A DNA stretch of 62,929 bases, counting the filler, from Sphacelaria rigidula (taxonomy: Eukaryota), in assembly GCA_964200075.2 (NCBI GenBank). It is 5 parts of 5 records of this genome, joined end to end, with 100 filler letters (N's around TTAATTAATTAA, not from the genome) between each part and the next. Parts side by side here need not be neighbours in the genome. Positions count along the whole stretch, not along the records: positions 12,608 to 25,114 come from CAXNAA020003686.1; 4 more parts are not named here. One strand, written 5' to 3'. Of this stretch, positions 45 through 37,820 are shown one piece after another (within the stretch, counting starts at the first letter, position 1; every line of letters starts with the position of its first letter). The notes beneath the pieces are model-generated. The model was not told the origin of the DNA, searched no databases, and worked only from the letters and a program-made list of their open reading frames with translations. Made by a program: the position numbers and the translations under genes.

Positions 45-120
45 ATCTTCCCTGCAATGGAGACATGGGACTTCAACCTCATTTTATGTTTCAACTCCAA
101 AAATTAGGATCGGCTGTTAT
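45..120. repeat. Terminal segment of a repeat family; inverted copy at 62854-62929
   Basis: 45-120 matches the reverse complement of 62854-62929 with 6 mismatches in 76 nt. Homology stops at ...CGGCTGTTAT, exactly where Academ-like sequence begins (121). Confidence 0.9.
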
Positions 121-3100: not shown

Positions 3101-4830
3101 CTCAGATTCTCGATCGCACTGTACACCCGGTTCACCAGTATGTACTAAGGGCCACCAATCACGATGCGTTTGACAGTGACTAGCACGGCGCCTGAGCAAT
3201 GCGGCTTGATACACCCGGAGGTCATCGCCAGAAGTGCAATGATCCACTGATCAGTGTCGATGGAAGTCACCAGCCACCTCTTCGGACATTTCCCGAACAA
3301 CCTTCCGGAGTGTATGATGAAATGCACTGTGGACATCTCTCCCTCACCTACACCGGGTCCAGGTGCGCTGTGGATACTCCTATCAGGCCCACTGCCATCA
3401 CGCCACCACAACAGGTGACCAGGCGAAGTGGCGGGAAGCGCGTCACTTTGCGCGCGCGATTCTCCTGCCTCCGCTTCCTCCACCCTCTCGCGGCCTGTCT
3501 ACGTGGCAAGATACGACCACGGAATCTCTGAAACCCCTGCGCGGGCGCGTAGACTAGTGCTCGGTGCCGTCGTCGGCGCCGACGCCGCCCCGCTTGATCG
3601 CTGGCCCGTCACCGCCGCAAGGTATGTCCGCGGGACCGCCTCTGCCATGCCTCTGTCGTCGAAACGCCCACATGCCGCACTTGCTGCCGCCGGCGGCATC
3701 GCCGGTACCCCTCCTCCCGTCCGCTTGCCGCAGCTGATGTGCCGGGTGGGACGGCAGCCAGACATACGCGAGGGTTTCACCACCTGCTCGCATGACATGC
3801 AACAAGGCGTATGTGTGCAAGAATTTAGTTCTGTGCTATATTTAACGTTTCGAGAGTCAGAGTCGGGGGTTCTTGTGCACATACGAAGTATATATATATA
3901 TATTACCCACGTATGCTCACGTCCCCTGTTTGGTTCGAAAGCCACAGTCATCACCTGAAAAAAAGCAGTGTGGAGCGTGCGATCCTAACCTCTGATAACT
4001 CGCAGGGTTACCACAATAGCGAATTGAAGATGCTCTCACCTCGGGATCGGTTCTGGTGTCGTATATGACGCTCGGACTGCCCCGGGCGGCGTCTCAGCAG
4101 GCGCCCGGACGTTGCATCCCATGAGTTAGCCTTGGGGATCCTCCACATCTGCCGCGAGGGTATGTGCAGGGGGGGTGGTCGGGTGGGGAGTTGAACACCA
4201 ACACTTCTGATCGACCGTGTCATCTACCCTGCCGTTCTCATGTTCTCGTCTCCTGTGGCGACGGAGATACATGTTTGCTATCGTATGTAGCGGTCGCGAC
4301 GTCCTATCGTGATACTGAAGTACCATTTGAATTGAGAAGTCGGAATCCATGTCTACATGAACGCCGGAAATCTAGATCTACGCCAGACGTTATTGATTTG
4401 ATTCCGGGTGTCAGATCACTAACTTGAACTCCTTCTCCTGCTCGGGACAGACACCAAGTGCAAGTTGTACATTCGCTTGTGTACAACGCGAGCCGCAGAA
4501 TTATTACGACCCCGCTGTTTGCAGGAAGTGGTGTACAAACGTCTCAAATACATTGCTACAATGCACACTTGTTCTGTATATATATATAGCGTTTTCTTCG
4601 AAACAGGCAATTCTCCCTCATACCACCCCCCCTGAAAAAATCAGGGAAAATGACGGTTGCGATCAGCGCCGTAAGTTCAGAGTCGGTCAAATGCGCTGGA
4701 GAAGTATCAACGCGATCAGTGGGCATTAGGCCGGCAAAAACGTCACGAGGCACCATCGCTGAAAGTGTGGGGAAAACATAGTTTTGGGCTTGAACCTCAT
4801 TTCATCGTACAGCCTCATTTTATAGTATTG
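121..4830 (-). mobile_element. AcademX-like DNA transposon remnant, copy 1 (internally deleted)
   Basis: Collinear homology with contig 2: 121-550 ~ 22040-22470, 1380-2700 ~ 22512-23832, 3735-4603 ~ 24035-24853. Encodes a PIN/XPG-type nuclease followed by a Cys cluster. Confidence 0.65.
1648..3483 (-). pseudogene. C-terminal part of an Academ-like transposase: PIN/XPG(FEN/XRN)-like 5' nuclease, Cys8-like finger, low-complexity tail
   Basis: ORFs 3145-3483, 2356-3135 and 1648-2175 share one frame broken by two stops (3145-47, 2356-58). Motifs: GEGE, VTSIDTD, LLAGCDVLPH, H..KA.AVL.YW....GW, then CAC...CRSCRCLGN*TLSCGCQGRC. The second stop is TGC (Cys) in copy 2. Confidence 0.7.
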
Positions 4831-11157: not shown

Positions 11158-11293
11158 GGAAGAGGCGCTGTGGCCATTGTCTTTGTAAGGTGGTACAGCG
11201 CGTCTCGTTGTAAGGAGAGAATTGTTTTTCTTGTGAGTGGGGGGCGACTTCGTTTTTCAAAAAGGCGTGTGGAGTACTGTACTGCTGACTGAA

Positions 11294-12507
11294 ATGTACG
11301 ACTCGCAGGAATATGCCATCGTCGATGGTCGTGTTGTTCCTGTACTGGCGCTGGAGATGCCGTACTACGGCCACAAATTTTCGAGCGAGAAATCGGCCGA
11401 GTTTTTACGCAAATACGAGCAACATTTGCGAGATATAGAACAGGTGAACGCGCGGTGGACAAACCTCTTTGAGGTGGCAGCAGTTTCTGAGCTCATGCCG
11501 AAACATATTGTGATATGTCTGTGTGACGCGTTCTTGAAAAAGGATGATGGTGTTGAGGACGAGCAGTTGATTTTCGCGTTGCGCAAGCATGCGCCGTCCG
11601 GTGGAGCTGCTTGCCCTGTGACAGCCGAGAAATATGTGTCTGCCCGAGGGGACAGGTGCGACAGTGCGCTCGCCGAACGTGCAGTAGGTGCTGCGCGTTT
11701 GAAACAAAGATACAGGACAGCTGCTTGCCCTGTGACAGCCGAGAAATATGTGTCTGCCCGAGGGAACAGGCACGACAGTGCACCCGCCGAACGTGCAGTA
11801 GGTGCTGCGCGTTTGAAACAACGATACAGGACAGCTGCTTGCCCTGCGACAGCCGAGAAACATGTGTCTGCCCGAGGGGATAGGCACGATAGTGCACCCG
11901 CCGAACGTGCAGTCGGTAGGGCGCATCTTAAACCACGATGCAGGGCAGCTGTTTCCCCTGTGCAGAGCGGGAAGGAGACGCAGCACGTGTCTGTGAAAAT
12001 GGGTAGGCATGAGAGCGCGCCCGCCGATAGTACCACGGTGAGCATTGGTTTAGATGCTGCTGGTATTGTTGTTGGAGAGGGCGAACATGCCACGCAGCTC
12101 GAGCGGACTGCAGGCAGCTCAGCTACCGCTGTTGCCGTTCAGGAGTGCGCTGCTCAGGAGGTGGCGGCTGAAGCGGGAATATTTGATCCAGCCGCTGATG
12201 CCGCTGCTGTTGGAAGCGCGGAGCCAATTTGCTCCGATGAGCTAGCGCTGAGCGGCAAAGGTCCAGGTTGCTCGTGGCCGCCGGACCAGAGCGTGATTGG
12301 GGACACACCTTGCATACTCACCGCTGCAAGGGGGTGTTATCTTCGTGATGAGAGTGAGCAGAGCAAGCTTGGGTCTTGCGATGCTCAGGGTGAATCTATC
12401 TGCTCCAGTGACATGGCGGGAGATCGTTCAGATAATTCGCAGGGGTGTCTGCTTGAAGGACAGGTGGATGCCGGGTTGGCGGAATTGCGGCCGGAGCAGC
12501 GCGTAGC
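11294..12507 (+). CDS. Gypsy gag-like ORF with internal 38-aa repeats, truncated at contig end
   Basis: The N-terminus (FLRKYEQHL...VSELMPKHI...LIFALRKHA) parallels the gag at 41480-40456 (FYAKYLDNM...IDQLIPTYI...LLDTVKQHA). It lies downstream of the LTR/PBS and is open to the gap. Confidence 0.6.
11606..11947 (+). repeat. Coding tandem repeat, 114 bp (38 aa) x3
   Basis: GCTGCTTGCCCTG unit starts at 11606, 11720 and 11834. Peptide AACPVTAEKYVSARG.R.DSA.AERAVG.A.LK.R.R. Confidence 0.9.
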
Positions 12508-12607
12508 NNNNNNNNNNNNNNNNNNNNNNNNNNNNNNNNNNNNNNNNNNNNTTAATTAATTAANNNNNNNNNNNNNNNNNNNNNNNNNNNNNNNNNNNNN
12601 NNNNNNN
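12508..12607. other. Artificial contig spacer N44-TTAATTAATTAA-N44
   Basis: 100 nt with a six-frame stop linker at 12552-12563. Confidence 0.98.
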
Positions 12608-13690: not shown

Positions 13691-14953
13691 CAGTTATGAC
13701 CGTGAATGGGGCCCGATTTCGGGCACTATATACCGGGAAAATGGACCGACCAACTCCACAGTCAGTTGAATGCGGAAGAAATGAAACCTACACAAGCCAA
13801 TCAGTATCAATCACAAGTACACGCGTTACTTGAAATGACGACGGCGCTCATACAAAATGTGCTATTGCCATAGTACATTCTACACCACATCTGTGGCTGA
13901 CGTTGCTGTACACCTGTAACAACAGGAGGATAGAAGCTGCTGCTCGTGTTGTTGCTGTGCCCTCCTTGCTGCAGTATGCTGTTGTGCTTACCTTTCAACG
14001 CTACTTTCTCGGCAACGACGCAGAGGATTGGACTGGGGTTGATGCGTGTGCTTCTCACATACCAAAACTAGTGAGTTTGAAAAGGTTGCTATACGCGTGT
14101 CGCGGAAGACGCAGCACTTTGCAAACCGCTGCACCAAACACAGAATGTACTACAAAACGCGTTTCCTGCAACGTTCTGGCTTTTCGGATCCGCTGTGGCG
14201 ATTTAGCAACTCCGCTCGTCAAACTCACGACGTCCAGTGTGTGTGCGGGGGGCTGTGAAGTTCCAGAGGCCGGTTTGTTTCCTGTCTCGAGATGGTAGCG
14301 ATGAAAAATTTACAGCTGTCGCATACTAAACCTAGGTGACTTGGGATGGGAGCGTGTGTCATGTTCAGCAGAGGTTCGGCACAGTTTCGGCACAGGCCGG
14401 ACCAGTCTAAGGCGCCTTCATTACGTCTTCAATATCCGTCCGCATTCATTTTGTTTTTTGTAGACAACGGATAATTGGTCGGTAAGGCCTTCATTCACGG
14501 GCATAGCTGTGAGCAGGTGGTACCGCTCAAGGCATCACTGCTGCGGTTGACACAAAGCAACGAACATGGGCAGCAAGCAGTATATTCTATACAGCTGTAT
14601 ACGTTATGTGTGTTTCAAGAGGGATGCGCACGGGGTGGGGCCCGCATCTGGAGAGCCCCGCACCAACTCCGCCCCGTTTGAGCGTGAACAGACATATTTT
14701 AAGCAGCAATCATTTGCGACATGTGCTGTGACGGATCTCGTGCGTTATCCGGCCTTTTTCTCCGTGCGGCATCGCCCGTGAAGCCACTTGCTGAAGCTGA
14801 CACTGCCCACCCCTCTTCCCACGATGACTTCCTCTCTGCAGTGTTACGCCCAGGTTAGTTTAACGTTCGTCACCACCACCCCCAAAACGACACTTGGCGA
14901 CGCAAAATAACTTGGCAGGGCACAACAATGACAATTATGTTGATGCAAAGGTA

Positions 14954-16065
14954 TAGTACTTATCCTCAATTACTCCTCCGTCGAAGTCCGGTTCAATTTC
15001 ATCCAGTACACACACGAACGATCGACGAATGACCGGAAGAAACGCCGACGAAATCTGCACAAGCCCAGAAGCCATTTTCCAACATGGCCGACGTACACGC
15101 GATCGCAGATAACTCGCGCTGCACGACTGGCAGCCCGCTGAAACTCAAGAGGCAAGTAGTCATTGCTGATAGTCATCGTTTAATATCAAACTCGCGCTGA
15201 TTAGTTCTCGGGATCGTGCGTAAATCGCAAAAGATGGAGCTTACTATACATCAACATTTTCATATACGGCAAGGGTACGCGCAGCCGTGACGTCGAGGGC
15301 TGATAGAGATGCATCTTAGCTACACAGAGCAATTTGATTTGTCTTTGCAGCTGCTGCTGTGTATTGAGATATTGCCATCTCGGTGGGGGGTATTGGGGCA
15401 CATGAGATGCGATGGAAAAGCGTATCAGATACTCCGGAGTACAAGGAAAGTCGGTATCCAAAAGAAGCCGGCGGCAATTGCGCCGCGTTTAAGTGTGTTC
15501 GTAGTCGTGAAAATATTCTCCCACCCTCTTGCATGAAAACAACGGCGTTGCCCGTCAGCAGAGAAGATAGTTCAAGCAGGTGCATGCCGTTATAGCTGCG
15601 GTGGCACGCGAAATCGCTAGCGTGCAAACACAAGCATACTGTCGTCAGCGAGGCCGTGACCCCTCCGCGTCCAAGGTCAGTTCTCATCGCAAACAAACAA
15701 CGCAAAACAATACTATACGAGCTGGGCCAGCTGACAGTGATTTGCGAATGTATCGGGCCGAGTGGTCGGAAATCCGAAGCGTTGGGCGCTGAAATATTGA
15801 CACAATTATTCCATCATTACAGCGCACAACCTTCCCGGGGATGCCAAGAAAAAATGAAAATATATGCACTTCGAGCGATTTGAAGTTTCTCCAAAAACTA
15901 GAAAAACGCTGTAACCCCGTGAAATAAATGAATACGTGGGGATCGCTACTATAGTTGTGCGTCCTTCAGTGGAGGAGATCCTGGTGCAATCACGGCCAAA
16001 ACTTCCAGAATTTGGCGAAGCATCCAACTTTTCGTATGGCACGGCTGCGCTCATTGAATCCAAGT
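14954..16065. mobile_element. Terminal ~1.1 kb of the Academ-like element (copy 3)
   Basis: Collinear with 21101-22228. Homology starts sharply at TAGTAC(T/A)TATCCT in both copies. Confidence 0.7.
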
Positions 16066-16116
16066 GCTTGTCATGAAGATGCATATTAGCCTGCTGTCAT
16101 GCCGCTTCACACCCGT

Positions 16117-16327
16117 TGTCGAGTCTGGCTTTCGGTATTTCGCGTATTCCGGTATTCAAGACTGCAGGTCTGTTCAGAGTTGGTCGGGTACGGAGATGAG
16201 CTTGTATATGGTAGAAGATGTTGACAGCTAGATCTGCAGATTAGCAGATCTGGTGCGCCTACCGTCTTACTACCCATCGCTTCCCTACTGCTCTCCAGCA
16301 AGAGAAGTCTAAGCATCGGTGAGACCT
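16117..16327 (+). mobile_element. Putative short LTR (TG...CA, 16117-16315) plus degenerate PBS
   Basis: TGTCGAG...AGTCTAAGCA tc GGTGAGACCT. The 3' end and PBS resemble those at 11120-11151. Confidence 0.45.
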
Positions 16328-16449
16328 ATTGACTGGTTTGGGATTCAATTGATTGATTGGATACTGTGAGTTAGAGACAAGGCAATTAAGGAAAAGTTAA
16401 GAACCATCGCGTGAAAACTCGTCTGACATTTTGATTGCTGAGCCTGTGT

Positions 16450-17280
16450 TCAGCACTGTGTAAGCTGTGACAGCCTGACTGTTGTCCACTTGCTCCGTGA
16501 GCTTGTGCCTTGGGTTGCGAGCTGTGTCCTTGCTATAATAGCGCAACAGCTCTTCATTACATTTGGCGTCGACGGCAGGATCACATAATGGACTGACTCC
16601 GCCGGAGATGTGGCGTCTGGCGCGGCAGGCTCTGTGACGCACGTCTCGAGTGGGATGTGCACCAGGGGAGCAGCGGCGATTCCTAAAATATCGCCGGGTT
16701 CTAAGTAAGCACGATCCGTAAGAGGCAGGAGTTGTTGCCCCGCCGACACAAAATGTTCTGTGTCGGCTGGGGCGCCATTACGGGGTAACATTTCGGCAAA
16801 GTAATGGCCCGTAAATGCTGGCATGTCATTTCGGCGAACTAGTGCAACTTCAAGAAGTTGGGAGTCATCGGAGAGTGTTATACCCACGCTACCATTATAT
16901 CGTAGGTGGTAAGCAGCTCCGTTTACTTGAGGATGGTTCTGATAAGCCAGGGCGCCGTGGAGAGTACCGAAGTGCTCGATGTTGAATTCTCCACGCGGCG
17001 TGGAATGTGGCGTTAGTGGTGGAAGCGTGCGGTAGGTGCGTTGATTAAACCGCATACAGCGATCTCTGCCCAAAAATGTGGCGTGATGCATTGTGCTGTC
17101 AGGGACAATGTATACCCAGACTGCCAGGCTGGCAGATCGAGTGGTGTTGTAAAATAATTGCACACTTAGTCGTACGGATTTACGTGTCGTCAGTGGTGCG
17201 GCAGAATCACCAAAACCGCCCCATACTCGAGGTTTGGTGGTGGTTTCGCAAGCTGCAGTAGCAACGCCAGTCTGTTTCAT
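16450..17280 (-). pseudogene. Gypsy pol fragment (C-terminal half of aspartic protease and linker)
   Basis: VRLSVQLF...VWVYIVP...FLGRD..MRF resembles the retropepsin C-terminal motif. Adjacent to the RT fragment. Confidence 0.55.
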
Positions 17281-17288
17281 GTGTTTTC

Positions 17289-17995
17289 ATGTTGATTTTC
17301 GAACTCGCTTCTGGATTTTTTCAGAATGCTGTACACCCTGACACAGTCCCACTGACGGCTTTTTGTACCTCGTCCGGATTCTATGAGTGGCTTCGGATGC
17401 CACAAGGCGCCGCAACTGCCCCGGGATGCTTTCAACGCTTAATGCAACGCGTCACCGAGGCCTCGAGCACATTATCATGTACCTGGATGACGCCATCGCT
17501 TTCGATGCCTCACCATATTGCACATACCCGCACTCTACGAGAATTTCTCTCTCGCCTACGCACGCACGATTTGGAACTATCTCCATCCAAAGCTCGCCTT
17601 GGTGCGACTGACTTGGAATTTTGGGGCATTCCTTTTCGCCAGCAGGCCTGCATCCGGATACAAACAAAGTTAGGGCGATGACTGATTTGCCGATGCCAAC
17701 CAACATTTCTCAACTTCGCTCATTGTTGGGCGGGCTATCCTACTACCGCAATTACTCAAGACGCTTATCGAAAAGCCAGTACTCTGCTTTGGGAGGCAAT
17801 ACAAGACGGCTCCCGCCTTTCCCAACTCCACGCTGACGCCAGCACAACGGATTTGGAGGAGTTTTAAATCAACCTCAGGTTAATGGCTCCGTCCGACCCA
17901 TCCTCTATATCAGCCGCGCTACCCTGCCCAACGAGGCCAATTGGAGCCCGCTAGAACTGGAAGGTGGAGTAATCACTCGGGCCATGAAGCGCCTA
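17289..17995 (+). pseudogene. Ty3/Gypsy reverse transcriptase-RNase H fragment, frameshifted
   Basis: FELASGFFQ, TAFCTSSGFYEWLRMPQG, MYLDDAI, LRSLLGGLSYYR, DAS, RPILYISRATLPNEANWSPLELE. Confidence 0.9.
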
Positions 17996-18921
17996 GCGGT
18001 TGCTAAGGCGCGGGCTGCAGTAGAAGACAAAGGACGGTCAGGTGTGTCCGTATCGGATAAACCTAAAATGCGGGCCGAAACATCAGCCAATTTAGGAATC
18101 ACTTGCCTGGGGGTCGCCGAACCCGAGGGGGGAAGGTCTGTGCTAGACCGGTTCCAGCCAGTTGCGGAAGAACCGGAAGAGTTACCTCCGGAGTTCTTGC
18201 GGTGCGGTTTGCGAGGCGGGCGGTTCGGTCCAGAACCGCCCGGAGAAGATCCTCCCCCGCCATGGCAGCGGCGTGAATTCCCACCATCGTTGTCGTCGTC
18301 ATCTCGCCTGTGGCGTTTTTCTGGCCCCGGAAATTGGAGCTTGCGGGGGGCCACCCATCTTCATCTTCGTCTCCGTCGATGGTGGCGCCGGAATGAGTGT
18401 TGTAGGCGGCGCGGAGCGCCGCAAAAAGTTGAATGACAGCATCAACATCAGTCTCGTGGTCCGGGTGATCACCGATGGTCGTCTAAAGGATCAGTTGGCC
18501 CAAGGTGAGCACTGATACGCCATCTTTGAGGAAGGCGCCGCCCTGGTCCACGTAAACCCTCACAGCATAAAACATTTGCTGTGAGATGAGGGTCCATGCG
18601 TCGCGGGAGCAATGAAGGTGATTGCGGCGTTGGAAGGGCCCGGTATAGGTGGCGATGGGACGAGAAAGCCACTCTCGTTCGTGGGGCGCCAGTTGCAAGT
18701 CTCGGGCAGAGACGACATTCGCCGCCGAGCTAGCTCTACGAGGTGGCGGTGGTGGAGCCGTTGTGGGGCGGATCCAGCCCAAAAGTGTCACGAAAGAAAT
18801 GGCTATTCAGCGCCTGATGTTTTGGCTCAGGCTGCACGAAGCGCCTCATATTGACGTCTTTGGCGAGAACGAACCCAGGCGTGGGAATTCCCAGCTGCTC
18901 GTTGTGCTCGGCTTCCACCAT
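17996..18921 (-). pseudogene. Decayed ORF of unknown function, divergent partner of 19100-21005
   Basis: Protein-like frames 18921-18790, 18791-18483 (continuing past one stop) and 18354-17996, with an acidic/Gly-rich tail. Cut off by the Gypsy RNase H at ~17995. Confidence 0.4.
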
Positions 18922-19099
18922 TTCGATTTACGTGAAGATTTTACCTCCCCAAACCCTGCACTTTTTTGGGGGGGGGCTATCGTAGAAAGATGCCCACATC
19001 ACACGTCACGGTTGAGCGCAAGTACAAGCGACAAACCTTAATCTTCATGATCGCTGCAACATAAGACTCCCGTACTTCCTCTTGGTATAGGTACTACCC

Positions 19100-21005
19100 A
19101 TGTCGGGTAAACGCTCGAGACAAGATGAACCCCGTGACGATGACGAAGATGAACATCCACCCTTGTCTGACTCCGAAGACGACCAAGTGCAGACTAACCG
19201 ATACGTCGATCCCGACTACGTCGATCCCGACTACGTCGTGCCGGATGAGGCCGTCGGTGATCACCCTCTTGGGGACATGTTCGGGAACAGTGATCACCAT
19301 GATGCCAACCTCTTCTCGCCGGATGCCGATCGCTTTTACTTTATCGGGTCTGGCACTAGCACCTGGGGTGGTGTGGGGCCGCGAAGACGGGACCGTGTCT
19401 TTCTCCGTGGGGTCCCCGCAAACCGACGTCGTGCCTTCATGGATGATTCCGTGCATTCCCCAGATTCCCAACAGTCCGGCATGTTGGGCCCGGACCTGGG
19501 GACCATGAATGTCGACCTCCGCCAGTTTCCATCATGATCGTACAGTGGCGTTTCCGACCTTGATCTGGACTACCAGTTGGTCCATATGCACATAGAATCC
19601 ATAGGCTACTCAGTCTTCGAAGAGGGCTTCGACGAGCTTTGCTGGACCCTACCTCAAATACGGGGAGGGCTGACCGAACTGGGAATAAAAGATGGTGAAC
19701 AACATCTTTCCGTCGCTAGGGGTCCGGGGATCCTGATGGCGACGTACAATCCCTGGCCAAATGGGGAGCCGGCGGACGAAGATCGTCAACGGGACGAACG
19801 TCGCGATCCTCGCAAGTTGATCCTGGATCATTTGCGAACGAATCGGGGTCCTGACTGTTTCCTCAATACAAAAATAGAACTCCTTGTCCGTGCTCCCCAC
19901 ATGATCGCGGCCCCGCACCCTGAGAGATGCCCTGGCTGCTGCTGGTCTGGAGCAGCTGATCTGGCTAAATTGGGGCATGAAGTGCAGGTCGGATGAATAT
20001 CTCAAGATAAGCGAGGCAGCTGTGAAGATGGACACTCGAATGAGCAACGCCCACGGTTACGATAATGACGGGACCGAGTACCGTACTCCGAACAGGTACG
20101 ACATAAGTTGTACCTATCGCGTTCCCTGATACATGGTCTTCGCCAGTGCATACGGATCTATTCCTCGCGACAACACAAAGGTTCGCCGAGGAGCGACCAA
20201 ATTCATTGTATACGGTCAATGTCCAGGTCTCCAGCGGCGGAAGTTTGGCGCCATTCAGTCGAGGAAGGGGGGCCTACGGTCACGCCCACTTGTCTCGAAG
20301 ATCACCGTGTACCCCGTGAACGATCACGTAATTCGGGCTCATGGCAGGTTCCAGTTCAGATCGGCAGAGACAATCGTTGAAACCCGGAAAAACGTCGGCC
20401 GCGTGGTGAACATGACCGACACCATCTACTCGCCCCGAAACGCCCGGGGAATGCGGGCTGCTATGTGCGGCATTCGGGTGGAGGTCAGAGTGACCGCCGT
20501 CACCGCGGAGGAAGCAAGGGATTACGTCCATGCTCGCAACCTCTGTGACCTAGTCACGCTGTTCGAGGAAGCCGGCCATACCAAGAGGTCCCTACAGAGG
20601 GTCCACTAGGTCGTGAAGGGAACCGGCCGGCCCTGCGCGAGTGTTCCCGGTGTCGCTAGTCCCCGTCGACGTTGTCGGCGGGTACACCATGCGGATCACG
20701 GATGCCGCAAGCAAATACCTCGTCGGGACAAACGCGAACGTCACCACCCCCACGCAAAGGCGTGCCCAGAGAGATGTATACGGTGGGGAGAACATTCGCG
20801 AGGTGGCACCGACCAACGTGATATCACCCCGGAGTACGGATTCTGGATATACGGGATCGAACTCGTTGAAAACCCAAACCTCCCGATCCCCCGGGAGGAC
20901 AGCGGCTCTCCGGGAAACGAGCAAGACGGCGCTGGGAGGAGGAACGGTGGGGGGGGTGGTGGAGGTGGAGGGGGTGGGGGGAGGGAGGTGCCGGCCCCGG
21001 TTTAG
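19100..21005 (+). pseudogene. Decayed ~600-aa ORF of an unclassified element; weak Rep_trans-like motif series
   Basis: 19100-19537 and 19577-19996 are in frame across one TGA. A +1 frame from ~19920 reads WLNWGMK...RYDISCTYRVP*YMVF...KFGAIQS...KITVYP...GIRVEVRV. Further frameshifted pieces run to ~21005. Confidence 0.5.
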
Positions 21006-21100
21006 TGTCACGTTCTTCACCACCACCCCCAAAATGAAGACGCGACGGAGTCTAAGAAGTGTACAGAAGGTTATATCGCAACTAAAGTAGTACACAGCTG

Positions 21101-24100
21101 TAGTACATATCCTACACTACCCCCCCGTCGAACTCCGGTTCAATTCCATCCAGTACAGCACACGCACGATCGACGGATGACCGGAAAAAAACCCGCGGAA
21201 ATCTGTTCAGGCCCAAAAGCTATTTTCGAATATGGCTTACCTACACGCGATCGTAGATAACTTGCGCTGCACGAACGGCGGGTAGCTGAAACTCAAGAGG
21301 CAGGTAGTAATTGCTAATAGCCATCGTTGAACATCAAATTTGCACCAATTAGTTTCCGGGATCGTGCGTAAATTGCAAAATATGAACCTTACTATACGTC
21401 AACATTTGTCGTTATGGCAAGGGTATGCGCAGCCGCAACGTAAAGGGCTGATAGCTATGCGTCTTAGCTACACATAGCAATTTGATTTGTCTCTGCAGCT
21501 GCTGTGTGTGTTGAGATATTGCCATCTCGGCGGGGGTGTTGGGACACATACGATGCGGTGGAAAAGCGTGCCAGATACCCCGGCGTATCCAAAAAAAGGC
21601 GATATCCAAACCAAGCCGGCGGCAATTGCGCCGCGTTGAGGCGTGTTCGTTGTCGTACATATATTATCCCACCCTCTTGCATGGAAACAACAGCGTTGCC
21701 CGTCAGCAGAAAAGATAGTTCAAACACATGTGCATGCCGTTATAGCTGCGGTGGCGCGCGAGGTTGCTGCCCAAAGCATAGAGTGCAAACACACGCATAC
21801 TGTCGTCAGCGAGGCCGTGACCCCTCCGCGTCTAAGGTCAGTTGTCATGGCAAACAAACAACGCCAAAAAATACTGTACGAGCTGGGCCAGCTGACAGTG
21901 ATTTGCGAATGTATCGGGCCGGGCGGTTGGTAATCCGAAGCGTTGGGCACTGAAATATTGACAAAATATTTCGATCATCACCACGCACAACCTTCTCGGG
22001 GATGCCAAGGAAAAAAAACAGACACTCATTTTGAGCGATTTGAAATTTCTGCAAAAACTAGAAGAATATTATAACTCCGTGAAAACAAATAAATACGTGG
22101 GCATCGCTACCGTAGTTGTGCGTCCTTCATTGGAGGACATCCTGGTGCAATTGCGACCAAATCTTCCAGAAATTTGGCGCAGCATCAAACTTTTCGTGTG
22201 GCACGGCGCCGCTCCTTTCATCCAAGTGACGCAGTTGACTCCAATTATGGAGGTCACGAGTGCGAATCCCGACGGATTCCTTTTTTTTTTCCGTCGGTTG
22301 AGTGATACATTATGCCATACATTTCCTTTATTTTTTCTTTCTTTCAGTGGCGGTCCCGTGCGTTACCACGTAGGTCTGCAGGCCACACCGATATACTCAG
22401 GTCGGGCTGGTTTGGCAAACTTGATAAATTCTAGTGTGACATGCAAATGCGGAATTTACCGCTGGCCCAATCCATCACTTACGCCCAAAACGAGAAAAAA
22501 GGTGACGGTCAGATTAGTCGTCTTGCGTTAAAACACTCACTTCATTGACATTATCAGGTAATCTCATGCACCACAGGCAATCCGCTGACGGGCGTAGCCA
22601 GATCACCCCCAATACACTTTTGCATCCCACGGTGCACCGCACATCCACGAGCCATCATGGCCATGTACATGAGACACGGCTCATGACTACAGCGTGGAAA
22701 AAACAACCTTCAGTTGTACAGAAACGTTTGCGCAATCTATCTACAGGAAAGAACGGCCCCAATATTACCCGCAGACTGAAATCAGAACGCGAAATCTTCC
22801 TCATTGTCGTCGCCTGCTGCCGATGCCGAGTCCTCTCTCTCGGACCCGCTGCATTCTGAATCCGAATCTTCGATCCAGATCCCGGCTGCAGAGTTGGACT
22901 TGTGTCTGACGGGTTTATCTAATCCGCCGTCGCAAAAGTAGCCACCAGTAGGATCTTGTCCCGGATGCGCCCCCCCCTACCCCCTGCCTCCCGCCGCCGT
23001 GCCAGTAACGCCCCTCACCATCGGTCACGCCAACAGGTGCCCCTGGCGCGTTGCTCGCTCCACTTGCCGCGCCCCTTCCGCATGATGCAGCCGACTCGCC
23101 CCTTGCGTGCTTCGCTGTTGAGCGGCCTTTCCCGTTGCGCAATTGCTCGCGTGTGCGGCCATCTACACCGGCGGTTTCACTGATCGGATCTGGTCCCGAG
23201 TGCACTCCCCCCACCACCTTCCCCCCGGCGCCGCGCCGGCGAGGCTCCTCACCATCAGTCGTATCAACAGGTGTCCCTGGTGCGCTGCTCGCTCGAGATG
23301 TCGCCCTCATTCCACGTGATGCAGTCGACCCACCCCTCGAATGTTTCGCTGTTGATCGGCTTCTTCGGTTCCGCGATTGGCCACGTGCACCGCTCTGTCC
23401 GTCGCCGGTTTCCTCAGCGGGATTCGCGGCGGCCGCTCGCGAAGGGGGCGGGGGCAGTAAGCAGCGACCCTGGCAACCGCAGCTCAGAGTGCAGTTCCCC
23501 AAACACGTGCAACCCCGGCATCTGTGTTTTGTCGCCGCCCTCTCCGGGTTGCATGCACATCTGAGTGTTTGCACGTTTCCGGATGTGTCGACGTATGTGT
23601 GACTCGACAAGTACACCACAATGTTATCGCGTGACAGCTCCACCCCTGCTGTGCCCGACGATTTTACACCACCCTTGTGGTGAGTCCTCCTCTCAGGTTC
23701 TATGCCCCACCCGCGTCCGTTAAACTTCACTGGGGGAATGCTGCGTAGGAAGCTTCCCCCCAGTATTCGAACACCGCATCGGACTTACTGACGTGCTTCT
23801 TACAGGCGTTTAAGTCTGGGCAGCAGCGGGAAGGCTCCCGACCACCGCGCCTGGCGCCCGAGAGTCACAGAACAGTGCGATCGCCCTGTGTTTTCCATAC
23901 GATTGGGGACTGGGCTCCTCTCTTACTGTGTCTTCGTCGCCGACGTGGCCGTCAGCAGTTGCCCTCATATTTGACATCGACACTGCAGATTCTACGCCTG
24001 TCGGACCAAAACCCCTCTCGACCACATGTGTTGCATGTGCCGGGCGGGATGGCAGCCGCAGATACGCAGGTGTTTCACTACCTGCCCGCGTGACATGCAA

Positions 24101-25114
24101 CAACGCACATGTGTGCAAGAACTTGGACCTGTGCAATATTTGACGTTCACTGAGTCAAAGTCGGGGAATCTTGTGCGTATATAATCCTATATATATATTC
24201 CAGGCATGCTCACGTCCTGCGTTTGGTTCGAAAGCCGCAGTCATCACCCGCGATGGCTCGCGGGGTTACTGCAATAGTAAATTGAAGATGCTCTTACCTC
24301 GGATTCGGTTCTGGTGTCGTATGTGACGCTCGGGCTGCCCCGGGCGGCGTCTCAGCAGGCGCCCGGACGTCACATCCCATGAGTTAGCCCTGGGGATCCT
24401 CCACATCTGCCGCGAGGGTATGTACGGGGGGGGTGGTCAGGTGGGGAGTTGAAAACCAACGCTTCTGATCGAGAGTGTCATCTACCCTGCCGTTCTCATG
24501 TTCTCGCCTCCTGTGGCGACGGAGGTATATGTTTTCTGTCGCATGTAGCGGTCGCGGCGTCCTATCGTGATTCTCAAGAACCATGAAAAATGATAGGTCG
24601 AAATCTATGTCCATGTCGACGACGGAAATCTCGACCCACGCCATCAGTTAGTTATTTGATTCCGGGTGTCAGATCACTAAATTGGACTCCTTCTCCAGCT
24701 CGGGACAGACACTAAGTGCGAGTTGTACATTCGCTTGTGTACAACGCGAGCCGTCGATTTATTACGGCCCCGCCGTTTTCAGAACGTGATGCAGATACGT
24801 CTTCATCACATTGCTTTATACACACTTGTACTCTATGTAGCGTTTTCTTCGAAATATGGATTTGTAAAAAATGAGGTTGCACGATGACATAAGGTTCAAG
24901 CCCAAAACAGTGCTTTCTCCACACTTTCCGCGATGGTGCCCAAGGACTTTTTCGTGAGCCTAATGCCCCTCGATCGCATAGATACTTCTTCTGCGGACTG
25001 CTGCCGAGATAGCCCCCCCCCAAAACCGGCCGAAAACGTGCACGAAGGCGATGATCATAACTGCCGTTAAAGTTGGTTTCGTGCTGCACGTCGCGACTGA
25101 TTTGGGCGTTACAG
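21101..25114 (-). mobile_element. AcademX-like DNA transposon remnant, copy 2 (non-autonomous deletion derivative)
   Basis: TAG terminus at 21101. Homologous to 14954-16065 and 121-4600. Lacks most of the nuclease domain (homology to copy 1 breaks at ~23832). Confidence 0.65.
22915..23832 (-). pseudogene. Academ-like transposase C-terminus with intact Cys cluster
   Basis: ORF 22915-23730: GRGWG...CACNPERAATKHRCRGCTCLGNCTLSCGCQGRC, followed by RSTAKH(S/A)RG repeats. Confidence 0.7.
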
Positions 25115-25214
25115 NNNNNNNNNNNNNNNNNNNNNNNNNNNNNNNNNNNNNNNNNNNNTTAATTAATTAANNNNNNNNNNNNNNNNNNNNNNNNNNNNNN
25201 NNNNNNNNNNNNNN
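25115..25214. other. Artificial contig spacer
   Basis: N44-TTAATTAATTAA-N44. Confidence 0.98.
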
Positions 25215-26388: not shown

Positions 26389-28338
26389 CCTTGCATTGTA
26401 TATAGAAAATGTGCCCAGCCGTGGACAAAAAAATTCTACAGACAGACAGTACGAACACGATGTGGAAAGTGTACTGCACAAAGTCAGTGTTTTGTCGTCC
26501 AATCTTGTCTGGACGCCGGGCCCACCTTTCGGTATATGTGGGCGCACCAGCCGCGGCTGTGTTACCATACAGCTTCGCCTAAGAAATAGGCAGCCATTAC
26601 AGCGGCGGAGGCGGCCTTTCACTCCTGCGTGCGCCACCTGGGGCAAACGCACGCTGTAGCTGCAACATGGACAGCTTTACAAAATGTGATGTGGCAATAT
26701 AGCGCGTGGCGAGGAGGTTTATATCCTGCGTACACCTTGGCTGCGATACAACGGCTGCACTCATGGTGTGGCGAAGTGCATAGGACAACACGAAATCAAT
26801 GCAGGACAGGTATAGACAAAGGATGCGACGTTCTGCGGTGTGCTTTGTCACCCTGAATTCTGCCGCTGTGCAGTGGGCAGGTAGTACCGCTGCAGGCGTC
26901 GCGCCGCGGTTGGCACACAGTATCGGCTCCACACTCAAAGGGTAACTGTCATGGTACGATACTTACCACCTGGGTAGGAAGATGCCAGTTCTGTGGGCAC
27001 CGGGGCTAGCAGGCCCGAACACAATCTTTAGTATCGAAGCCATTAAGGTCGACATTATCGAGTGTAAAGTCAGCCACCGCACCAGTGGTCAGGTGTCATG
27101 CCATGAGCCGCGCAGGCTGCAGCATAACATGTGTTGCATGAAGGTCAAGCTTACATTTGTGAAGACCAGAGAACCCTCTGAGATAGCAGTCCATGATGGC
27201 GTAGATGCTCTTGTATTATTGGCGTACAGGCTAACTTGTGCTTTGCTAGTGGAGATGCATGGTCCAAAACGCTGTGACCCAAAGGGGGCGGCCAAGCCAA
27301 TTCAATCAAACAATGTAGTATGACCCATCAGGTACCAAGCATGACAAAGTATGAGAAATGGAACCCAGTCGACTGGAACATGACCAATAAACTTGTAACA
27401 TCCCCCTAGCCATATTTATATGGTTAAACACAAACTTATTGGAGGTCTGGAAGGGTCAGAACAAAAACAAAGCCTGTGCACCATACGCCTGAGAGTAAAA
27501 CGAGAAAAAACTGCTGAATTACAGTACAACAGAGGAAAACTCGTTGCAGATCTCATGAATAGGTGAACCCTGATAAGCAGGGGAAAATTCCATCCGTTAG
27601 GAAAGGAAAAAAATCTATAACGCCCTTTCCAACGACAGAAACAGCAGACAAGTACGGTCGCTGTCGTTTTCCCGGGGTCTCAGTTAGACTGGAGAACGAT
27701 CGGCTAGTTAGCATGATCGCGCGTCGACACCCTGGATCAGTTAGACTGGATTCTAGCGTAGTGCGGGGCTTAAACCTCGCTAAAAACAACCTTTCCGCGA
27801 ACTGATCAATAGTTACAGGAGTGCAGCTTTTGAGGGGTGCTCTTCTGTAACTACCGATACCTATTGTACTGGAAATAGAGCCTACGCGCCTTGGCTCACA
27901 CATGTGCCCGTATATCACCAAATGGGAAGCAATCGATAACAAAGCGGCACAAGAAAAAGACAAGGAGCACTCGAAATTCATGACTGAAGCGTACGGTAGC
28001 AGCAATATATAGTTACATATTTCCTTACTTCACTACCGTATTCCTCTCGCGGTGATATCGTGTACCCCATCACACAACAGCCATTCGTACACGTCCATGG
28101 CTGCAGTCTATTCTTTGGCTCCTCCGTTTCAGCTTGGGGCGCTAAACTTCCAAGCGAAATGGCTGTTTCTAGTCTCCATTTTCGTATCGTACCCGCCGAA
28201 AGAAATTCCCATAATCATACACGTGGTGCTTCAACTCGGCACTGATGTAGCCTTTCCAGGAGGTAGCACCTGTGTCAAAAGCTTCAAGACATCACTACGT
28301 GGGGAAGCGGGGTGCTTCGAGTGCGATGGCGGGGTCGT

Positions 28339-28840
28339 AGGAACTGTGGAGTGATACAGGTGCAAAAGGCTTATGACGCAGTATGGAGCAGTGGGTTGTG
28401 GGAAAATATATGAGGAACTGTGATCAAAGGAAAGGTGTGGACGATTGAGACGAAATAAATGTGCCAAAAATGCGACGGTGCTAGACAGGGAAACGAAATA
28501 TTTTGATCGTTTTGAAGGAGTCGCACCAGGATGTACGCTATCACCCTCTCTAACCGAGGTATTCTTCGATGACCTGATACAAGCATGAGACATGGCAAAG
28601 CGAGGGTTGGAAATGATGAAACAACTGGAAACAGTGCTGCTGGCCGCAGCTAAGAGAATACTTTGATGCGGAAACGGTGCAAACGGCAGCAAAGAAAATA
28701 TTACTTGGATGCAATAAAAATAGTGAGGATGAAAACAGTACAGAGTGCAACAGCTCAGAAACTACTTGGATGAAGTGAAGTTGGTGAAGGAGTTGGGGAA
28801 CAGTGCAGATTACAGCAGCTAGGGGAATTACTTGGACGCT
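28339..28840 (+). pseudogene. Non-LTR (LINE) reverse transcriptase fragment, copy A
   Basis: VQKAYDAVWSSGLW, GVAPGCTLSPSL..VFFDDLI (the GV.QG..LSP motif), KQLETV..AAAKRIL. Confidence 0.85.
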
Positions 28841-28849
28841 CAAAACAAA

Positions 28850-29690
28850 AAGGTACGCCCTCCCCCCTTTTGAAGTCTTTCCCTTTTCTCCACCCGTCAG
28901 TGCCTGAAACAACGTAGAGTTCTCGACAATCCAACATGGTGACAGATACAGGCAATGCAGTCCAACACGACACAAATTCAGGGGTCAGGTGGAATGTGGG
29001 TGTGGTGTTCCAGTTTGGCCCCCCTCAAGGTGTGACGCTAACACTTCGGGTATGAGGTGTTTCGGATAGGGTGGGCGGATATGGAAGGAACTTCTCGCTA
29101 TTGAGACAGCGGTGGTACGTGTTTAATGTTTACGGCCAGCCCAGAGCTCGAAGGGGCGTGTGTCAGACGATAGCATGGCGTCAGGTCGTCGGGTAGGGTA
29201 CGATTGCGCAAGAGTGTGCGTGAAACGTACTTCTCTGGGGCCAAGATTTGTACAATTATGTAACCTCTTCAGCAGTCGTCCCCCTAGGTTCTCGAATCCT
29301 GTGAAACTGTAGACATAATGGCGAAAATGAAATAGGCAAGGCATGCTGAGTAAAATATAATAATGAGGTACGTTGTACTAAATATACCGAGACAGCAAAA
29401 AGAGAGCGCGCGTGTACCTACATCGTGCAGCAATACCGTTGGCTTTTCTACGTATTCAGAATATCGGTCAGCAGGGCGACTAGAATGCTACGCTCCTGGA
29501 CAAACTGTCCAAGGTACCTGGTGGTTTGAGAAACGAACGTAGTTTTTCGATTGTATGGACGTGGCGTCTGAGTAACTGTATGCCGGTATTATCGATCAAC
29601 AGGCTAAGGAACCTGTGAGACCCTGCAGTAAAGATAAATTTGGCGAACTTGGCGAATTTTACTGAACACAAAATCGTGTAGTCGACAAAA
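28850..29690 (-). mobile_element. Gypsy remnant (RT/connection fragment and PPT-like run), copy A
   Basis: FLSLLIDNTGIQ...KLRSFL...SILVALL.DIL at ~29610-29455. GGGGGAGGGCGTAC at ~28867-28853 resembles the PPT at 37850-37867. Confidence 0.55.
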
Positions 29691-31297
29691 TTTCCCGGGG
29701 AACGTTGGGTGAGCAACACCTCGGTCAAGAAGCTTGTGCATTTCTTTTCTGATCATACGGCGTTCTCATGGTGGGAAACCGCGTTGTTTTGTGGCAAAGG
29801 GTGTGCACGCGAGACAACAACCAGCAAAAAGTATGGAACTCGTGCTTCGCCGGTCCAGCGACCATGTCAGCGACGCAAGTGTCTAAAAACTATATGTAGG
29901 GCCTGTAAGGACCGTCAAAAACTATATAGATAGTCGCGCAGTCAACTTGCATGGTAGGCTGGGCATGAAGAGCAAAAAGGCAAAATAGGGAAACTACGTA
30001 CGTCTGCGTACTGAATAAGTAATGACAAGGCAATCCACAGGAAAATGAGTGGCAGCATGATATCGAAAACCAAGTTTGAAGCAACTGAACAATGTATTAT
30101 CCAACTACGGTACCGCAAATGAACAAGGTAGTATCCAACTACGGTACAGGGGGCGTCAGAAGGTCAACCTGGTGAATAGCAAACCATACGATCGATTACC
30201 AGTGTGGGATAAAATGGGAATCCTATTTAGTGGCACCAAGGTAATGACCCTGCTACCAGAATGCTATGAAAAGGTACCCGGGATTAGCTAAACCAAACCA
30301 AATTGCAGGCACTCCACGCGGGAACACACCGTCATTGGCAAACCGTTCAGTGTTTCCTGCGTGTCCTCCCCAACGCAATGACGTTTAGCGCCGGTTCCCT
30401 CAGCGGGATGCGAACACCGAGGACAAGAGTGTGGGTGAAACAGGGGCGGAAGTAATAGCGGGAGTGGTTAGTATACGTTGGAAGTCTTGGGGTACATGGA
30501 AATATGGTTCGATTTTATACCACGTGACGCAGATCGAAATGTCGTGAGCCGGGCGGTAAATTCGGCGTTTCGGCCTTGCGAACCAGATAGATGAAACGAT
30601 TACCAGCGGAATCCTGCTCAAGCATGATGAGTACAGGCAGCGCAACAGACAAGACCCTGCAGATAGCCTGCACCCGCACGATCAAAGAAAAACATCACGA
30701 GCGCCAAACGCAATACAAAATTACCAGAACATGAAATGAAAAATAGTGCAGCGCAAAATTATTCAGCACTCAAAATACAATCGAGGGGCTTAAAACACAG
30801 TTGTGGTAGACGCGATACCCGGAGATGCAGACAATATAAGTATGTAAAATGAAAGAAAAGCAAACAAGATCGAAATAGAAATGGAAGCTTTACTGCATGC
30901 GCATTCCACAAATCCTCATGGCCACAATAATAATGCAACCCCGGAAACAAAGTACATACTGATAATGGTAGGTTGTTCTACAATAAAACTACCGGGATAA
31001 TATAGAGAATGTCTAGAACACGATCATTGCTGGAAGGTACAGCGATGATGTTATGGCTGACCAGGTGTAGATCAGGCGAAGGTAATACAATGCACGCAAC
31101 AATGACAAAACAAAAACTGTGCGATCAGATCGAAGCAAGGTTATGAAGAACATGAGGGCGGAAAATGCACGTGCACATGACAACATGCGATGTGATAGTG
31201 AGCGAGAAAAAGTACAGCCGACAGTAGGCGGTAGAGGCAAAAATAACACAACAAGCGGGACAATGACAGCCAACCAGGGTAGCAGAAAGCACGGTGG

Positions 31298-33439: not shown

Positions 33440-36400
33440 TGTCATGGTACGATACTTACCACCTGGGTAGGAAGATGCCAGTTCAGTGGGAACCGGGGCT
33501 AGCAGGCCCAAACACAATCTTTAGTATCGCAACCATTGAGTTCGATATTATCGAGTGCAAAGTCAGCCACCGCACCAGTGGTCAGGTGGCATGCCATAAG
33601 CCGCGCAGGCTTGCAGCACAATATGTGTTGCATGAAGGTCAGGCTTACATTTTGTGAAGACCAGAGAATCCTCTGAGATAGCAGTCCCTGATAGCGTAGG
33701 TGCTCTTGTATTATTGGCGTACAGGCTAACTTGTGCTTTGCTAGTTGAGATGCATAGTCCAGAACGCTGTGGCCCAAAGGGGGCCGCCAAGTCAATTCAG
33801 TCAAACAATGTAGTATGACCCATCAGGTACCAAGAATGACAAAGTATGACAAATAGAACCCAGTCGACTGGAACATGACCAATAAATCTGTAACATCCCC
33901 CTAGCCATATTTATATGGCTACACACAAATTTATTGGAGGGCTGGAAGGGCCAGAACAAAAACTACGCCTGTGCATCATACGCCTGAAAGTAAAACGAGA
34001 AAAACCTGCTAAATTACAGTACAGGGGAAAACTCGTTGCAGACCTAATGAATGGGTAAACCCTGATAAGCAGGGGAAAACTCCATCCGTCAGGAAAGGAA
34101 AAAAATCTATAACGCTATTTCCAACGACAGAAACAGCAGACAAGTACGGTCGCTGTCGTTTTCCCGGGATCTCTGTTAGACTGGAGAACGATCGGCTAGT
34201 TAGCGTGATCGCGCGTCGACACCCTGGATCAGTTAGACTGGATTCTAGGGTAGTGCGGGGCTTAAACCTCGCTAAAAACAACCTTTCCGCGAACTGATCA
34301 ATAGTTACAGGAGTGCAGCTTTTGAGGGGTGCTCTTCTGTAACTACCGATACCTATTCTACTGGAAATAGAGCCTACGCGCCTTGGCTCACACATGTGCC
34401 CGTATATCACCAAATGGGAAGCAATCGATAACACAGCGGCACAAGAAAAATACAAGGAACACTCGAAATTCATGCCTGAAGCGTACGGTAGCAGCAATAT
34501 GTAGTTACATGTTCCCTTATTTCACTACCGTATTCCTCTCGCAATGATATCGTGTACCCCATCACACAACAGCCATTCGTACACGTCCATGGCTGCAGTG
34601 TATTCTTTGGCTCCTCCGTTTCAGCTTGGGGCGCTAAACTTCCAAGCGAGATGGCTGTTTCCAGTCTCCATCTTCGTCCCGTACTCGCCGAAAGAAATTC
34701 CCTTAATCATACACGTGGTGCTTCAGCTCGGCACTGATGTAGCCTTTCCAGGAGGTAACACCTGTTGCAAAAGCTTCAAGGCATCACTACGTGGGGAAGC
34801 GGGGTGCTTCGAGTGCGATGGCGAGGTCGAAGAAACTGTGGGGTGATACAGGTGCAAAACGCTCATGACGCAGTATGGAGCAATGGGTTGTGAGAAAATA
34901 TATGAGGAACTATGATCAAAGGAAAGGTGTGGACGATTATGACGAAAGAAATGTGCCGAAAGTGCGACGGTGCTAGACAGGGAAATATCGAAATATTTTG
35001 ATATTTTTGAAGGAGTCACACCAGGATGTACGTTATCACCCTCTCTAACCGAGGTATTCTTCGATGACCTGCTACAAGCGTGAGACATGGCAAAGCAAGG
35101 GGTGAAAATGATGAAACAACTGGAAACAGTGCAGCTGGCCGCAGCTAAGAGAATACTTTGATGCGGAAACGGTGCAAATGGCAGCAAAGAAAAGAATACT
35201 TGGATGCAATAAAAATAGTGAAGATGAAAACAGTACAGAGGGCAACAGCTCAGAAACTACTTGGATGAAGTGAAGGTGGTGAAGGAGTTGGGGAACAGTG
35301 CAGCTTACAGCAGCTAAGGGAATTACTTGGATGCTCGAAACAAATAGGTACGCCCCCCCCCCTTTTGAAGTCTTTCCCTTTTCCCCACCCGTCAGTGCCT
35401 GAAACAACGTAGAGTTTTCGACAATCCAACATGGTGACAGATATAGGCAATGCAGTCCAACACGACACAAATTCAGGGGTCAGGTGGACGCAAACACTTC
35501 GGGTATGAGGTGTTTCGGATAGGGTGGGCGGATATGGAAGGAACTTCTTGCTATTGAGACAGAGGTGGTACGTGTTTAATGTTTACGGCCAGTCCAGAGC
35601 TCGAAGGGGAATGTGTCAGACGATAGCATGGCGTCAGGTCGTCGGGTAGGGTACGATTGCGCAAGAGTGTGCGTGAAACGTACTATCTCTGGGGCCAAGA
35701 TTTGTACAATTATGTAACCTCTTCAGCAGCCGTCCCCCTAGGTTCTCGAATCCTGTGAAACTGTAGACATAATCATGGCGAAAATAAAATAGGCAAGGCA
35801 TGCTGAGTAAAAATATAATAATGAGGTACGTTGTACTAAATATACCGAGACAAGGCACAGAAATGACAAGAAACATGCCCTCACACGCATGAGTTGTACA
35901 TTGATGCTCATTGTGCGAGAGTCTAGTTCGTATGCCATATCCTAGCTGAGCCACCATGAGACGACCGGATTGTGGTGGTGAAGTCTTGCTGCAATTATAT
36001 GGCACAAGAGTTTGACAGCAAAAGGAGAGCGCGCGTTTACCTACATCGTGCAGCAATACTGTTGGCTTTCCTACTTATTTAGAATATCGGGCAGCAGGGC
36101 GACTAGAATGCTACGCTCCTGGACAAACTGTCCAAGGTACCCGGTGGTTGTAGAAACGAACGTAGTTTTCGATTGTATGGACGTGGCGTCTGAGTAATTG
36201 CGTTGCATTTGGAGGGGGCTGGTTGTATGCCGGTATTATCGATCAACAGGCTAAGGAACCTGTGAGACCCTGCAGTAAAGATATATTTGGCGAACTTGGC
36301 GAATTTTACTGAACACAAAATCGTGTAGTCGACAAACTTTGCCGGGGAACGTTAGGTGAGCAACATCCTCGGTCAAGAAGCTTGTGCATTTCTTTTCTGA

Positions 36401-37720
36401 TCATACAGCGTTCTCATGATAGGAAACCGCGTTGTTTTGTGGCAAAGGGTGTGCACGCGATACAACAACCAGCAAACAATATGGAACTCGTGCTTCGCCC
36501 CCCCCAAGGGGGTCCAGCGACCATGTCAGCGACATAAGTGTCTAAAAACTATAGGTAGGGCCTGTAAGTACCGTAAATATATACATATATATATATATAG
36601 TTGCGCAGTTGACTTGCATGGTAGGCTGGGCATGAAGGGCAAAAAGGCAAAATAGGGAAACTACATACGTCTGCGTACTGAATAAGTAATGACAAGGCAA
36701 TCCAGGGGAAGATGAGTGGTAGCATGATATCGAAAACCAAGTTTGAAGCAACTGAACAATGTATTATTCACCTACGATACCGCGAAGGAACAAGGTAGTA
36801 TCCAACTACGGTACAGTATGCGTCAAGGAGTCAACCTGGTGAATAGCAAACCATACAATCGATCACCAGTGTGGGATAAAATGGGGATCCTACTTGGTGG
36901 CACCAAGGTAATGACCCTGCTACCAGAATGCAATAAAAAGGTACCCGGGATTAGCTGAACCAAACCAAATTGCGGACACTCCATAAAAAGGTACCCGGTA
37001 CCAGCTAAACCAAACTAAACTGCAGACACTCCACGCGGGAACATACCGTCATTGGCAAACTGTTCAGTGTTCCCTGCGTGTCCTCCCCAACGCAATGGCG
37101 TTTAGCGCCGGTTCCCTCAGCGGGATGCGAACACCCAGGACAAGAGTGTGGGTGAAACAAGGGCGGAAGTAATAGAGGGGGTGGTTAGTATACGTTGGAA
37201 GTCTTGGGGTACATGAAAATATGATTCAGTTTCATACCACGTGACGCAGATCGAAATGTCGTGTGCCGGGCGGTAAATTCGGCGTTTCGGCCTTGCAAAC
37301 CAGATAGATGAAACGATTACCAGCGGAATCCTGCTAAAGCATGATGAGTACAGACAGCGCAAAATTATCCAGCACTCAAAATACAATCGAGGGGCTCAAA
37401 AGACAGTTGTGGTAGACGCGACAACCGGAGATGCAAACACTATGAGTATGTAAGATGAAAGAAAAGCAAACAAGATCGACATAAAATGGAAACTGTACTG
37501 CATGTGCATTCCACAAATCCGCATAGCCACTATAAAAATGCAACCCCGGAAACAAAGTGCATACTGATCATGGTGGGTTGTTTTGCAATAAAGCTACCGG
37601 GATAATATAGAGAATATCTAGAACACGATCATTGCTGGTTGGGTACAGCGATGATATTATGGCTGACCAGGTGTAGATCAGGCGAAGGTGATACAATGCA
37701 TGCGACAATGACAAAACAAA
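33440..37720. repeat. 4.2-kb segmental duplication, copy B (runs to contig end)
   Basis: Direct copy of 26947-31115 with scattered substitutions and indels. Confidence 0.95.
34850..35335 (+). pseudogene. LINE reverse transcriptase fragment, copy B
   Basis: LDREISKYFDIFEGVTPGCTLSPSL, KQLETVQLAAAKRIL. Confidence 0.85.
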
Positions 37721-37820
37721 NNNNNNNNNNNNNNNNNNNNNNNNNNNNNNNNNNNNNNNNNNNNTTAATTAATTAANNNNNNNNNNNNNNNNNNNNNNNN
37801 NNNNNNNNNNNNNNNNNNNN
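37721..37820. other. Artificial contig spacer
   Basis: N44-TTAATTAATTAA-N44. Confidence 0.98.

Follow-up and report, generated by a model that had tools for sequence, protein, structure and literature searches.

The window analysed here, a 62,929-nt stretch joined from five records of the Sphacelaria rigidula assembly GCA_964200075.2, carries a broken gene on its plus strand (Table 1) that is probably a dead, 3'-truncated gene copy of an algal mobile element. Its protein would be a non-HUH tyrosine nickase with the fold of the TATA-binding protein (TBP), related to the Rep_trans enzymes. An origin from mobile DNA is suggested because the gene is intronless and decayed, belongs to a family of divergent groups and lies in a transposon-rich neighbourhood.

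The gene covers 1906 nt, or about 635 codons, and is made up of an acidic N-terminus, a core of about 450 aa and a Gly-rich linker that ends in a glycine run and a stop at 21003-21005. The C-terminal domain of its relatives is absent: a profile of that domain had its best match in the window at an unconvincing E of 0.53. The frame opens with the ATG at 19100, is interrupted by stops at 19535 and 20127 and, compared with the homologues, changes frame near 19912, at 20580-20620 and at 20780-20810. The preliminary description of this locus had already placed the start and the two stops there and mentioned frameshifts, and the motifs it listed (WGMK, RYDISCTY with D at 20100, KFGAIQS, KITVYP with Y at 20310, GIRVEVRV with E at 20481) are likewise found where it put them. 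It had also noted the lack of introns, which is borne out: between 19313 and about 20890 the relatives can be aligned in colinear order without assuming an intron.

Several assembled sequences carry the gene. One 2069-nt contig of run X1 spans 18961-21029 without a difference, and a 2047-nt contig from a run labelled algae metagenome contains the gene with 6 differences and 1 gap. No RNA data set is listed as carrying the gene; a 322-nt contig piece of run X6, a run only guessed to be RNA, matches 19892-20213. A 175-aa database protein, P0006, is 99% identical to part of the gene, but from about 20579 onward its reading frame is a different one; the alleles therefore differ in their breaks. 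No element end was identified in the leader upstream of the gene, and the ends of the single-copy block share only 4-nt repeats, for which no target duplication is claimed. An Rfam search gave no match.

Table 1. Features of the locus and its immediate neighbours (positions in the window).
Feature	Position	Strand	Evidence
Gypsy fragments on the left (RT, RNase H)	17262..17995	+	Pfam; depth 2e4-8e4
Broken ORF remnant, multicopy repeat	17996..18773	-	Depth 1.4e3-1.2e4 in X1
End of high-copy MITE-like repeat, terminal inverted repeat ~31 nt	18774..18989		Depth 5e5 vs 25; loose-end consensus on both sides
Single-copy leader 5' of the gene	18990..19099		One 2069-nt X1 contig
Broken intronless gene of an unnamed family, predicted Rep_trans fold	19100..21005	+	Alignment of relatives; single-contig depth
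Candidate metal-binding Asp of motif N', in xLDY (D9 in RepSTK1, D46 in RepDE)	19568..19570	+	10/10 covering rows
Candidate metal-binding Asp of motif I (RxD), in NRYDIS (D116/D142)	20100..20102	+	13/13 rows
Tyr of KITVYP, candidate catalytic nucleophile (Y179/Y191)	20310..20312	+	14/14 rows
Candidate metal-binding Glu of motif IV (RxE), in GIRVEVR (E196/E214)	20481..20483	+	R-x-E-x-R in 13/13 rows
Degenerate repeat removing the 3' end of the gene	20994..22228		Second copy at 14848-16066, 82% identical

The gene belongs to a protein family without a name. When the X-read piece 19905-20606 was searched against 1.84 billion representatives (E<=0.001), 19 proteins were returned, and another search added P0005. 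Of these 20 proteins, all of them fetched, 14 went into the alignment, leaving out the repetitive P0021 and the short fragments P0015, P0016, P0018, P0020 and P0022; the set includes P0006, which is not independent of the window. The three proteins for which a source is listed come from Logan assemblies. Eight relatives are long and uninterrupted (577-1401 aa) and share the core of about 450 aa together with a long acidic or Gly-rich linker; seven of them also end in a basic domain of about 65 aa. This C-terminal domain has no match in the PDB or Pfam, and the idea that it adopts an AP2-like fold found no support in those searches. The closest relatives of the window gene are P0004 and P0005, at 41-52% identity. 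In a tree of 13 cores these two form a pair; five sequences each make up two further groups, with support of 99/99 and 88/88, and P0009 stands on a long branch. The deep order is unsure because long branches meet. Profiles of two groups match each other over 419 columns (probability 99.8%). None of Pfam, PHROGs, NCBIfam and the PDB sequences contains a match to the family. One member, P0014, has an extra N-terminal region (residues 100-320) with GACFFNSLA and a later RHF, which we take to be like an OTU-type cysteine protease, although Pfam has no match to it.

The known Rep_trans active site consists of three acidic residues and a strand-borne tyrosine, D46/D142/E214 with Y191, or D9/D116/E196 with Y179 in RepSTK1. 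The known proteins that come nearest to the family are those of Rep_trans (PF02486): RepSTK1 (4CIJ), RepDE/RepDN (4CWC/4CWE), pT181 RepC, MOBT relaxases and inovirus RstA/gII-like initiators. In the family, a D, D, Y and E are invariant in the Rep_trans order, each on a predicted strand. The D, Y and RxE of the preliminary description thus prove to be conserved in all homologues that cover them (Table 1), and the N' Asp adds a fourth conserved residue that its motif series did not contain. This Asp is modelled on strand E17-26 of model 2, the motif I Asp on a beta-strand in both models and the Tyr, as would be expected of Rep_trans, at the end of a beta-strand (E339-346 and E263-268 in the two models). 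The Tyr, putatively catalytic, is the only invariant one of the core. Further likenesses to Rep_trans are the hydrophobic-D-aromatic form of the N' motif and the small residue at D+2. Neither has an HUH triplet, and the 14 core sequences contain no H-hydrophobic-H triplet at all.

The spacing and the surroundings of the tyrosine differ from those of Rep_trans. In the relatives, the D-D, D-Y and Y-E distances are 165-180, 68-76 and 56-57 residues, compared with 99-147, 49-66 and 16-31 in 16 Rep_trans sequences; the impression that the last two were unusually long was therefore correct. A helical insert is predicted after the Tyr and would fill the long Y-E gap. Instead of the motif III context RxYxKxxE, the family has YxxxxHxxR, with Thr at Y-2 in all 14 relatives. 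The lysine of YxK was said to be missing, and it is absent from the window gene, but position Y+2 is K in 4 and R in 1 of the 14 relatives. The invariant His (Y+5) and Arg (Y+8) are possible stand-ins for the basic residues around the Tyr. For motif II (T/SxY/ExG) there are two candidate strands, YxQxPG and GSxQT, neither of which matches clearly. When motif profiles were run over about 400 positions, the first rank went to the N' Asp and to the RxE Glu, and the third to the motif I Asp. The motif III profile did not have the Tyr among its 4 best sites, and 43 of 300 shuffles equalled the total for the motifs in order. The family is further set apart from Rep_trans by its long acidic tails, its distinct C-terminal domain and its occurrence in a eukaryotic genome.

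The fold of the core is predicted to be Rep_trans/TBP-like, with the curved sheet seen in the catalytic domains of RepSTK1 and RepDE. These two structures come out at or near the top of independent fold searches with the models, and no HUH or DDE structure is among the fold matches listed. TBP chains rank just below RepSTK1, and matches in BFVD include both Inoviridae replication proteins and early-transcription-factor-like proteins of NCLDVs.

At the level of sequence, the relationship to Rep_trans is not significant. PF02486 matched neither the window pieces (E<=1) nor 12 relatives (E<=0.1), and HHalign against 16 Rep_trans members gave a probability of 0.3% (E 0.22), with a best stretch that pairs the motifs of the family with those of Rep_trans but is likewise not significant. 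It is partly for this reason that a TBP-fold protein other than a nickase has to be weighed, derived for example from the early transcription factor of a large DNA virus or from some other DNA-binding factor, in which the D, Y and E would be structural or serve another chemistry. The rank of the TBP chains and the NCLDV matches fit such a protein. However, the modelled match to RepSTK1 extends over about 200 residues and that to TBP over about 145, with a Z about 2 higher for RepSTK1; TBP-fold viral transcription factors, too, match over less and score lower than RepSTK1. The invariant acidic residues and the single invariant Tyr would have to fall into the Rep_trans order by coincidence. TBP is not known to have a catalytic D/D/Y/E set. 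We therefore consider a non-nickase unlikely and the enzyme proposed in the preliminary description probably right, given the invariant residues, the additional N-terminal Asp and the RepSTK1/RepDE fold matches. Having failed the Pfam, profile and motif III tests, the gene would thus represent a new Rep_trans-fold family and not a member of PF02486.

A precedent for such a relationship is found in the archaeal Rep-Arvir proteins (DUF7845/PF25227, exemplified by RepSNJ2), which, according to PMC13107129, are connected to Rep_trans by structure only and with similarly weak Foldseek scores. They also share with the family a non-canonical Tyr context, similar D-D and D-Y spacings and a catalytic domain that is followed by a separate small domain. 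Unlike the family, they have a Y-E spacing of 20, a MarR-like wHTH and a proven origin hairpin; the PF25227 domain has no match in the family, and there is no significant hairpin at the locus.

That locus was previously seen as a single element of about 3 kb, in which two head-to-head genes flank a hairpin. The ATGs are indeed 180 bp apart, and a 7-bp stem is present (18947-18953 / 18965-18971). Contigs of four runs, aligned to 14500-22500 at 80% likeness, give a different picture, based on summed contig depth, which does not equal copy number. The gene has a depth of 24.6, 28.7 and about 12 (X1, X3 and X4) over 19306-20640, that is, one contig; 17971-18771 reaches 1.4e3-1.2e4 in X1, and the bin 18772-19038 reaches 5e5. 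The pieces of the block thus differ from each other by 50- to 20,000-fold. Contigs with loose ends and unlike flanks pile up before 18774 and behind 18989, 128-228 of them per DNA-like run (193-228 at 18989). Together with the jump in depth, they therefore place a repeat terminus between the two ORFs. Rather than one element, the block consists of four pieces that adjoin each other and differ strongly in copy depth, and the 3-kb model, largely refuted, is now very improbable.

The repeat whose terminus separates the ORFs is MITE-like; its summed contig depth exceeds that of the adjacent gene about 20,000-fold, and it has one copy within the window. In the consensus of the loose ends, about 31 nt form an inverted repeat, and the flanks diverge after a common TGTCA. 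In other copies, which end in TG...CA, the inverted repeat reads TGACA...CCCCCCCCCAAAA / TTTTGGGGGGGGG...TGTCA; in the copy at 18774-18989 the second inverted repeat is missing, as are the final 5 nt. A TGTCA at 21006 was considered as the missing 5 nt and rejected as probably a chance occurrence, because the likeness to the repeat copy at 14848 runs through it. Both the ATG at 18921 and the 7-bp stem lie inside the repeat end, which is a neighbour of the Rep-like gene and no part of it. A divergent partner gene is rejected on these grounds. The same location rules against the stem as an origin, as does the folding of the 191-nt region around it (z -0.72, with 48 of 200 shuffles equally good).

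The other boundaries of the block are also set by repeats. On the left, matches to PF00078 (RT, E 1e-10) and PF17917 (RNase H, E 6e-7) identify the Gypsy fragments, whose RNase H does end at about 17995, as had been noticed. The minus-strand ORF next to them has no match in Pfam, PHROGs or NCBIfam and no likeness to the fetched proteins. It is possibly the internal coding part of the inverted-repeat element; alternatively, it could be ORF1 of a retroelement. On the right, an Academ-like TAG terminus had been suggested at 21101, which is rejected, as likeness to the repeat copy at 14848 already starts at 20994 (score 61, compared with a maximum of 27 in 300 shuffles).

If the gene encodes a nickase, its carrier may not have been a transposon. 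The gene could instead stem from a small DNA virus or plasmid, inovirus-like or of another kind, that was mostly extrachromosomal, integrated occasionally and left an endogenised fragment here; this amounts to a sub-case of the preferred explanation, with the same enzyme on another carrier. Its intronless structure, the single-contig depth without element ends or a second copy, and the Inoviridae proteins among the BFVD matches are all consistent with such a source. Nevertheless, no capsid or helicase gene adjoins, the supposed partner ORF belongs to a different repeat, and the very long acidic low-complexity tails (in proteins of up to 1401 aa) appear unlike compact viral Reps. No relatives were found by tblastn in phage and plasmid records, and none were confirmed in IMG/VR, JGI metagenomes or GTDB by exact-pattern scans, which have low sensitivity. 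We regard a viral or plasmid carrier as a minor possibility. An ordinary or domesticated host gene family, such as a nuclease derived from a Rep and now a pseudogene in S. rigidula, is less probable still. It would account for the single-contig depth and for the eight long relatives, several with a conserved C-terminal domain, but those long uninterrupted proteins suggest intronless genes, the family has many divergent paralogue-like groups and fragments, and the window copy is broken and surrounded by transposon debris.

For the preferred reading, a mobile element with a Rep_trans-related nickase, a mechanism can be proposed. The strand-borne Tyr (20310) would attack one DNA strand with the assistance of metal, forming a 5'-phosphotyrosine, and the freed 3'-OH would prime displacement synthesis by host enzymes. 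A second transesterification would then release or join the strand, completing a round of rolling-circle copying that could serve either copy-and-paste transposition or the replication of an integrated episome or virus. The basic C-terminal domain behind the acidic/Gly linker, present in seven relatives and lost here, would be the likeliest module for DNA recognition. Since long uninterrupted relatives exist, the nicking hypothesis is directly testable.

Rep_trans enzymes seem confined to bacteria, to which an archaeal branch has been added (PMC13107129). The eukaryotic rolling-circle transposons found in print, Helitrons and Replitrons, use the unrelated HUH fold, to which the family has no match. 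They possibly share its way of life, being copy-and-paste elements that are reported in brown algae, and Replitrons possibly also resemble it in having a single nickase gene without a helicase (PMC10288648). No eukaryotic Rep_trans-fold element was found in the accessible portions of the literature, outside subscription journals and Repbase; the papers drawn on are PMC13107129, PMC5714925, PMC4797284, PMC10288648 and PMC12477816. Were eukaryotes to have a family of this fold whose active site appears intact, it would fill in the last of the three domains and suggest a new class of transposon or virus. Tentatively, the gene may mark an undescribed class of eukaryotic DNA transposons or small DNA replicons that depend on a Rep_trans/TBP-fold tyrosine nickase, and not on an HUH, DDE or tyrosine-recombinase enzyme. 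If true, this second superfamily of rolling-circle enzymes would extend to eukaryotes as the third domain, and algal sequence data would still contain several of its clades in intact form. The family would also allow some unclassified brown algal repeats to be named. Ectocarpus has 94 unknown repeat families according to PMC12477816; a term search of five supplements to that paper gave nothing, and its DNA library may hold the family unnamed.

The remainder of the window is also rich in repeats. Fragments at 1-4600, 14848-16066 and 20994-24854 are 79-88% identical and belong to one large degenerate repeat. A minus-strand frame at 2359-3144 includes the stretch LAGCDVLPHVSGIP, which we take to be like the H2TH motif of XPG/FEN1, although the frame has no Pfam match. 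Two further open frames have no Pfam match, one of 440 aa at 11237-12556 (+), which consists partly of tandem repeats of about 114 nt, and one of 278 aa at 16453-17286 (-), antisense to the Gypsy region. The N runs (paired 44-nt) at 12508-12607, 25115-25214, 37721-37820 and 50326-50425, every ~12.6 kb, look like spacers from assembly or masking, not biology. A direct duplication of about 4 kb (26947-31114 and 33440-37720, 87-93% identity) encloses long CAG/CAA-rich simple repeats. Gag-like ORFs at 39120-41442 (-) lie upstream of RT-like remnants and include a weak match to a zinc knuckle (PF00098, E 0.004); they represent a second LTR retrotransposon. Long exons at 45031-49372 (-) belong to a probable host gene, in which the frame 45031-46350 has LRR and weak TPR matches.
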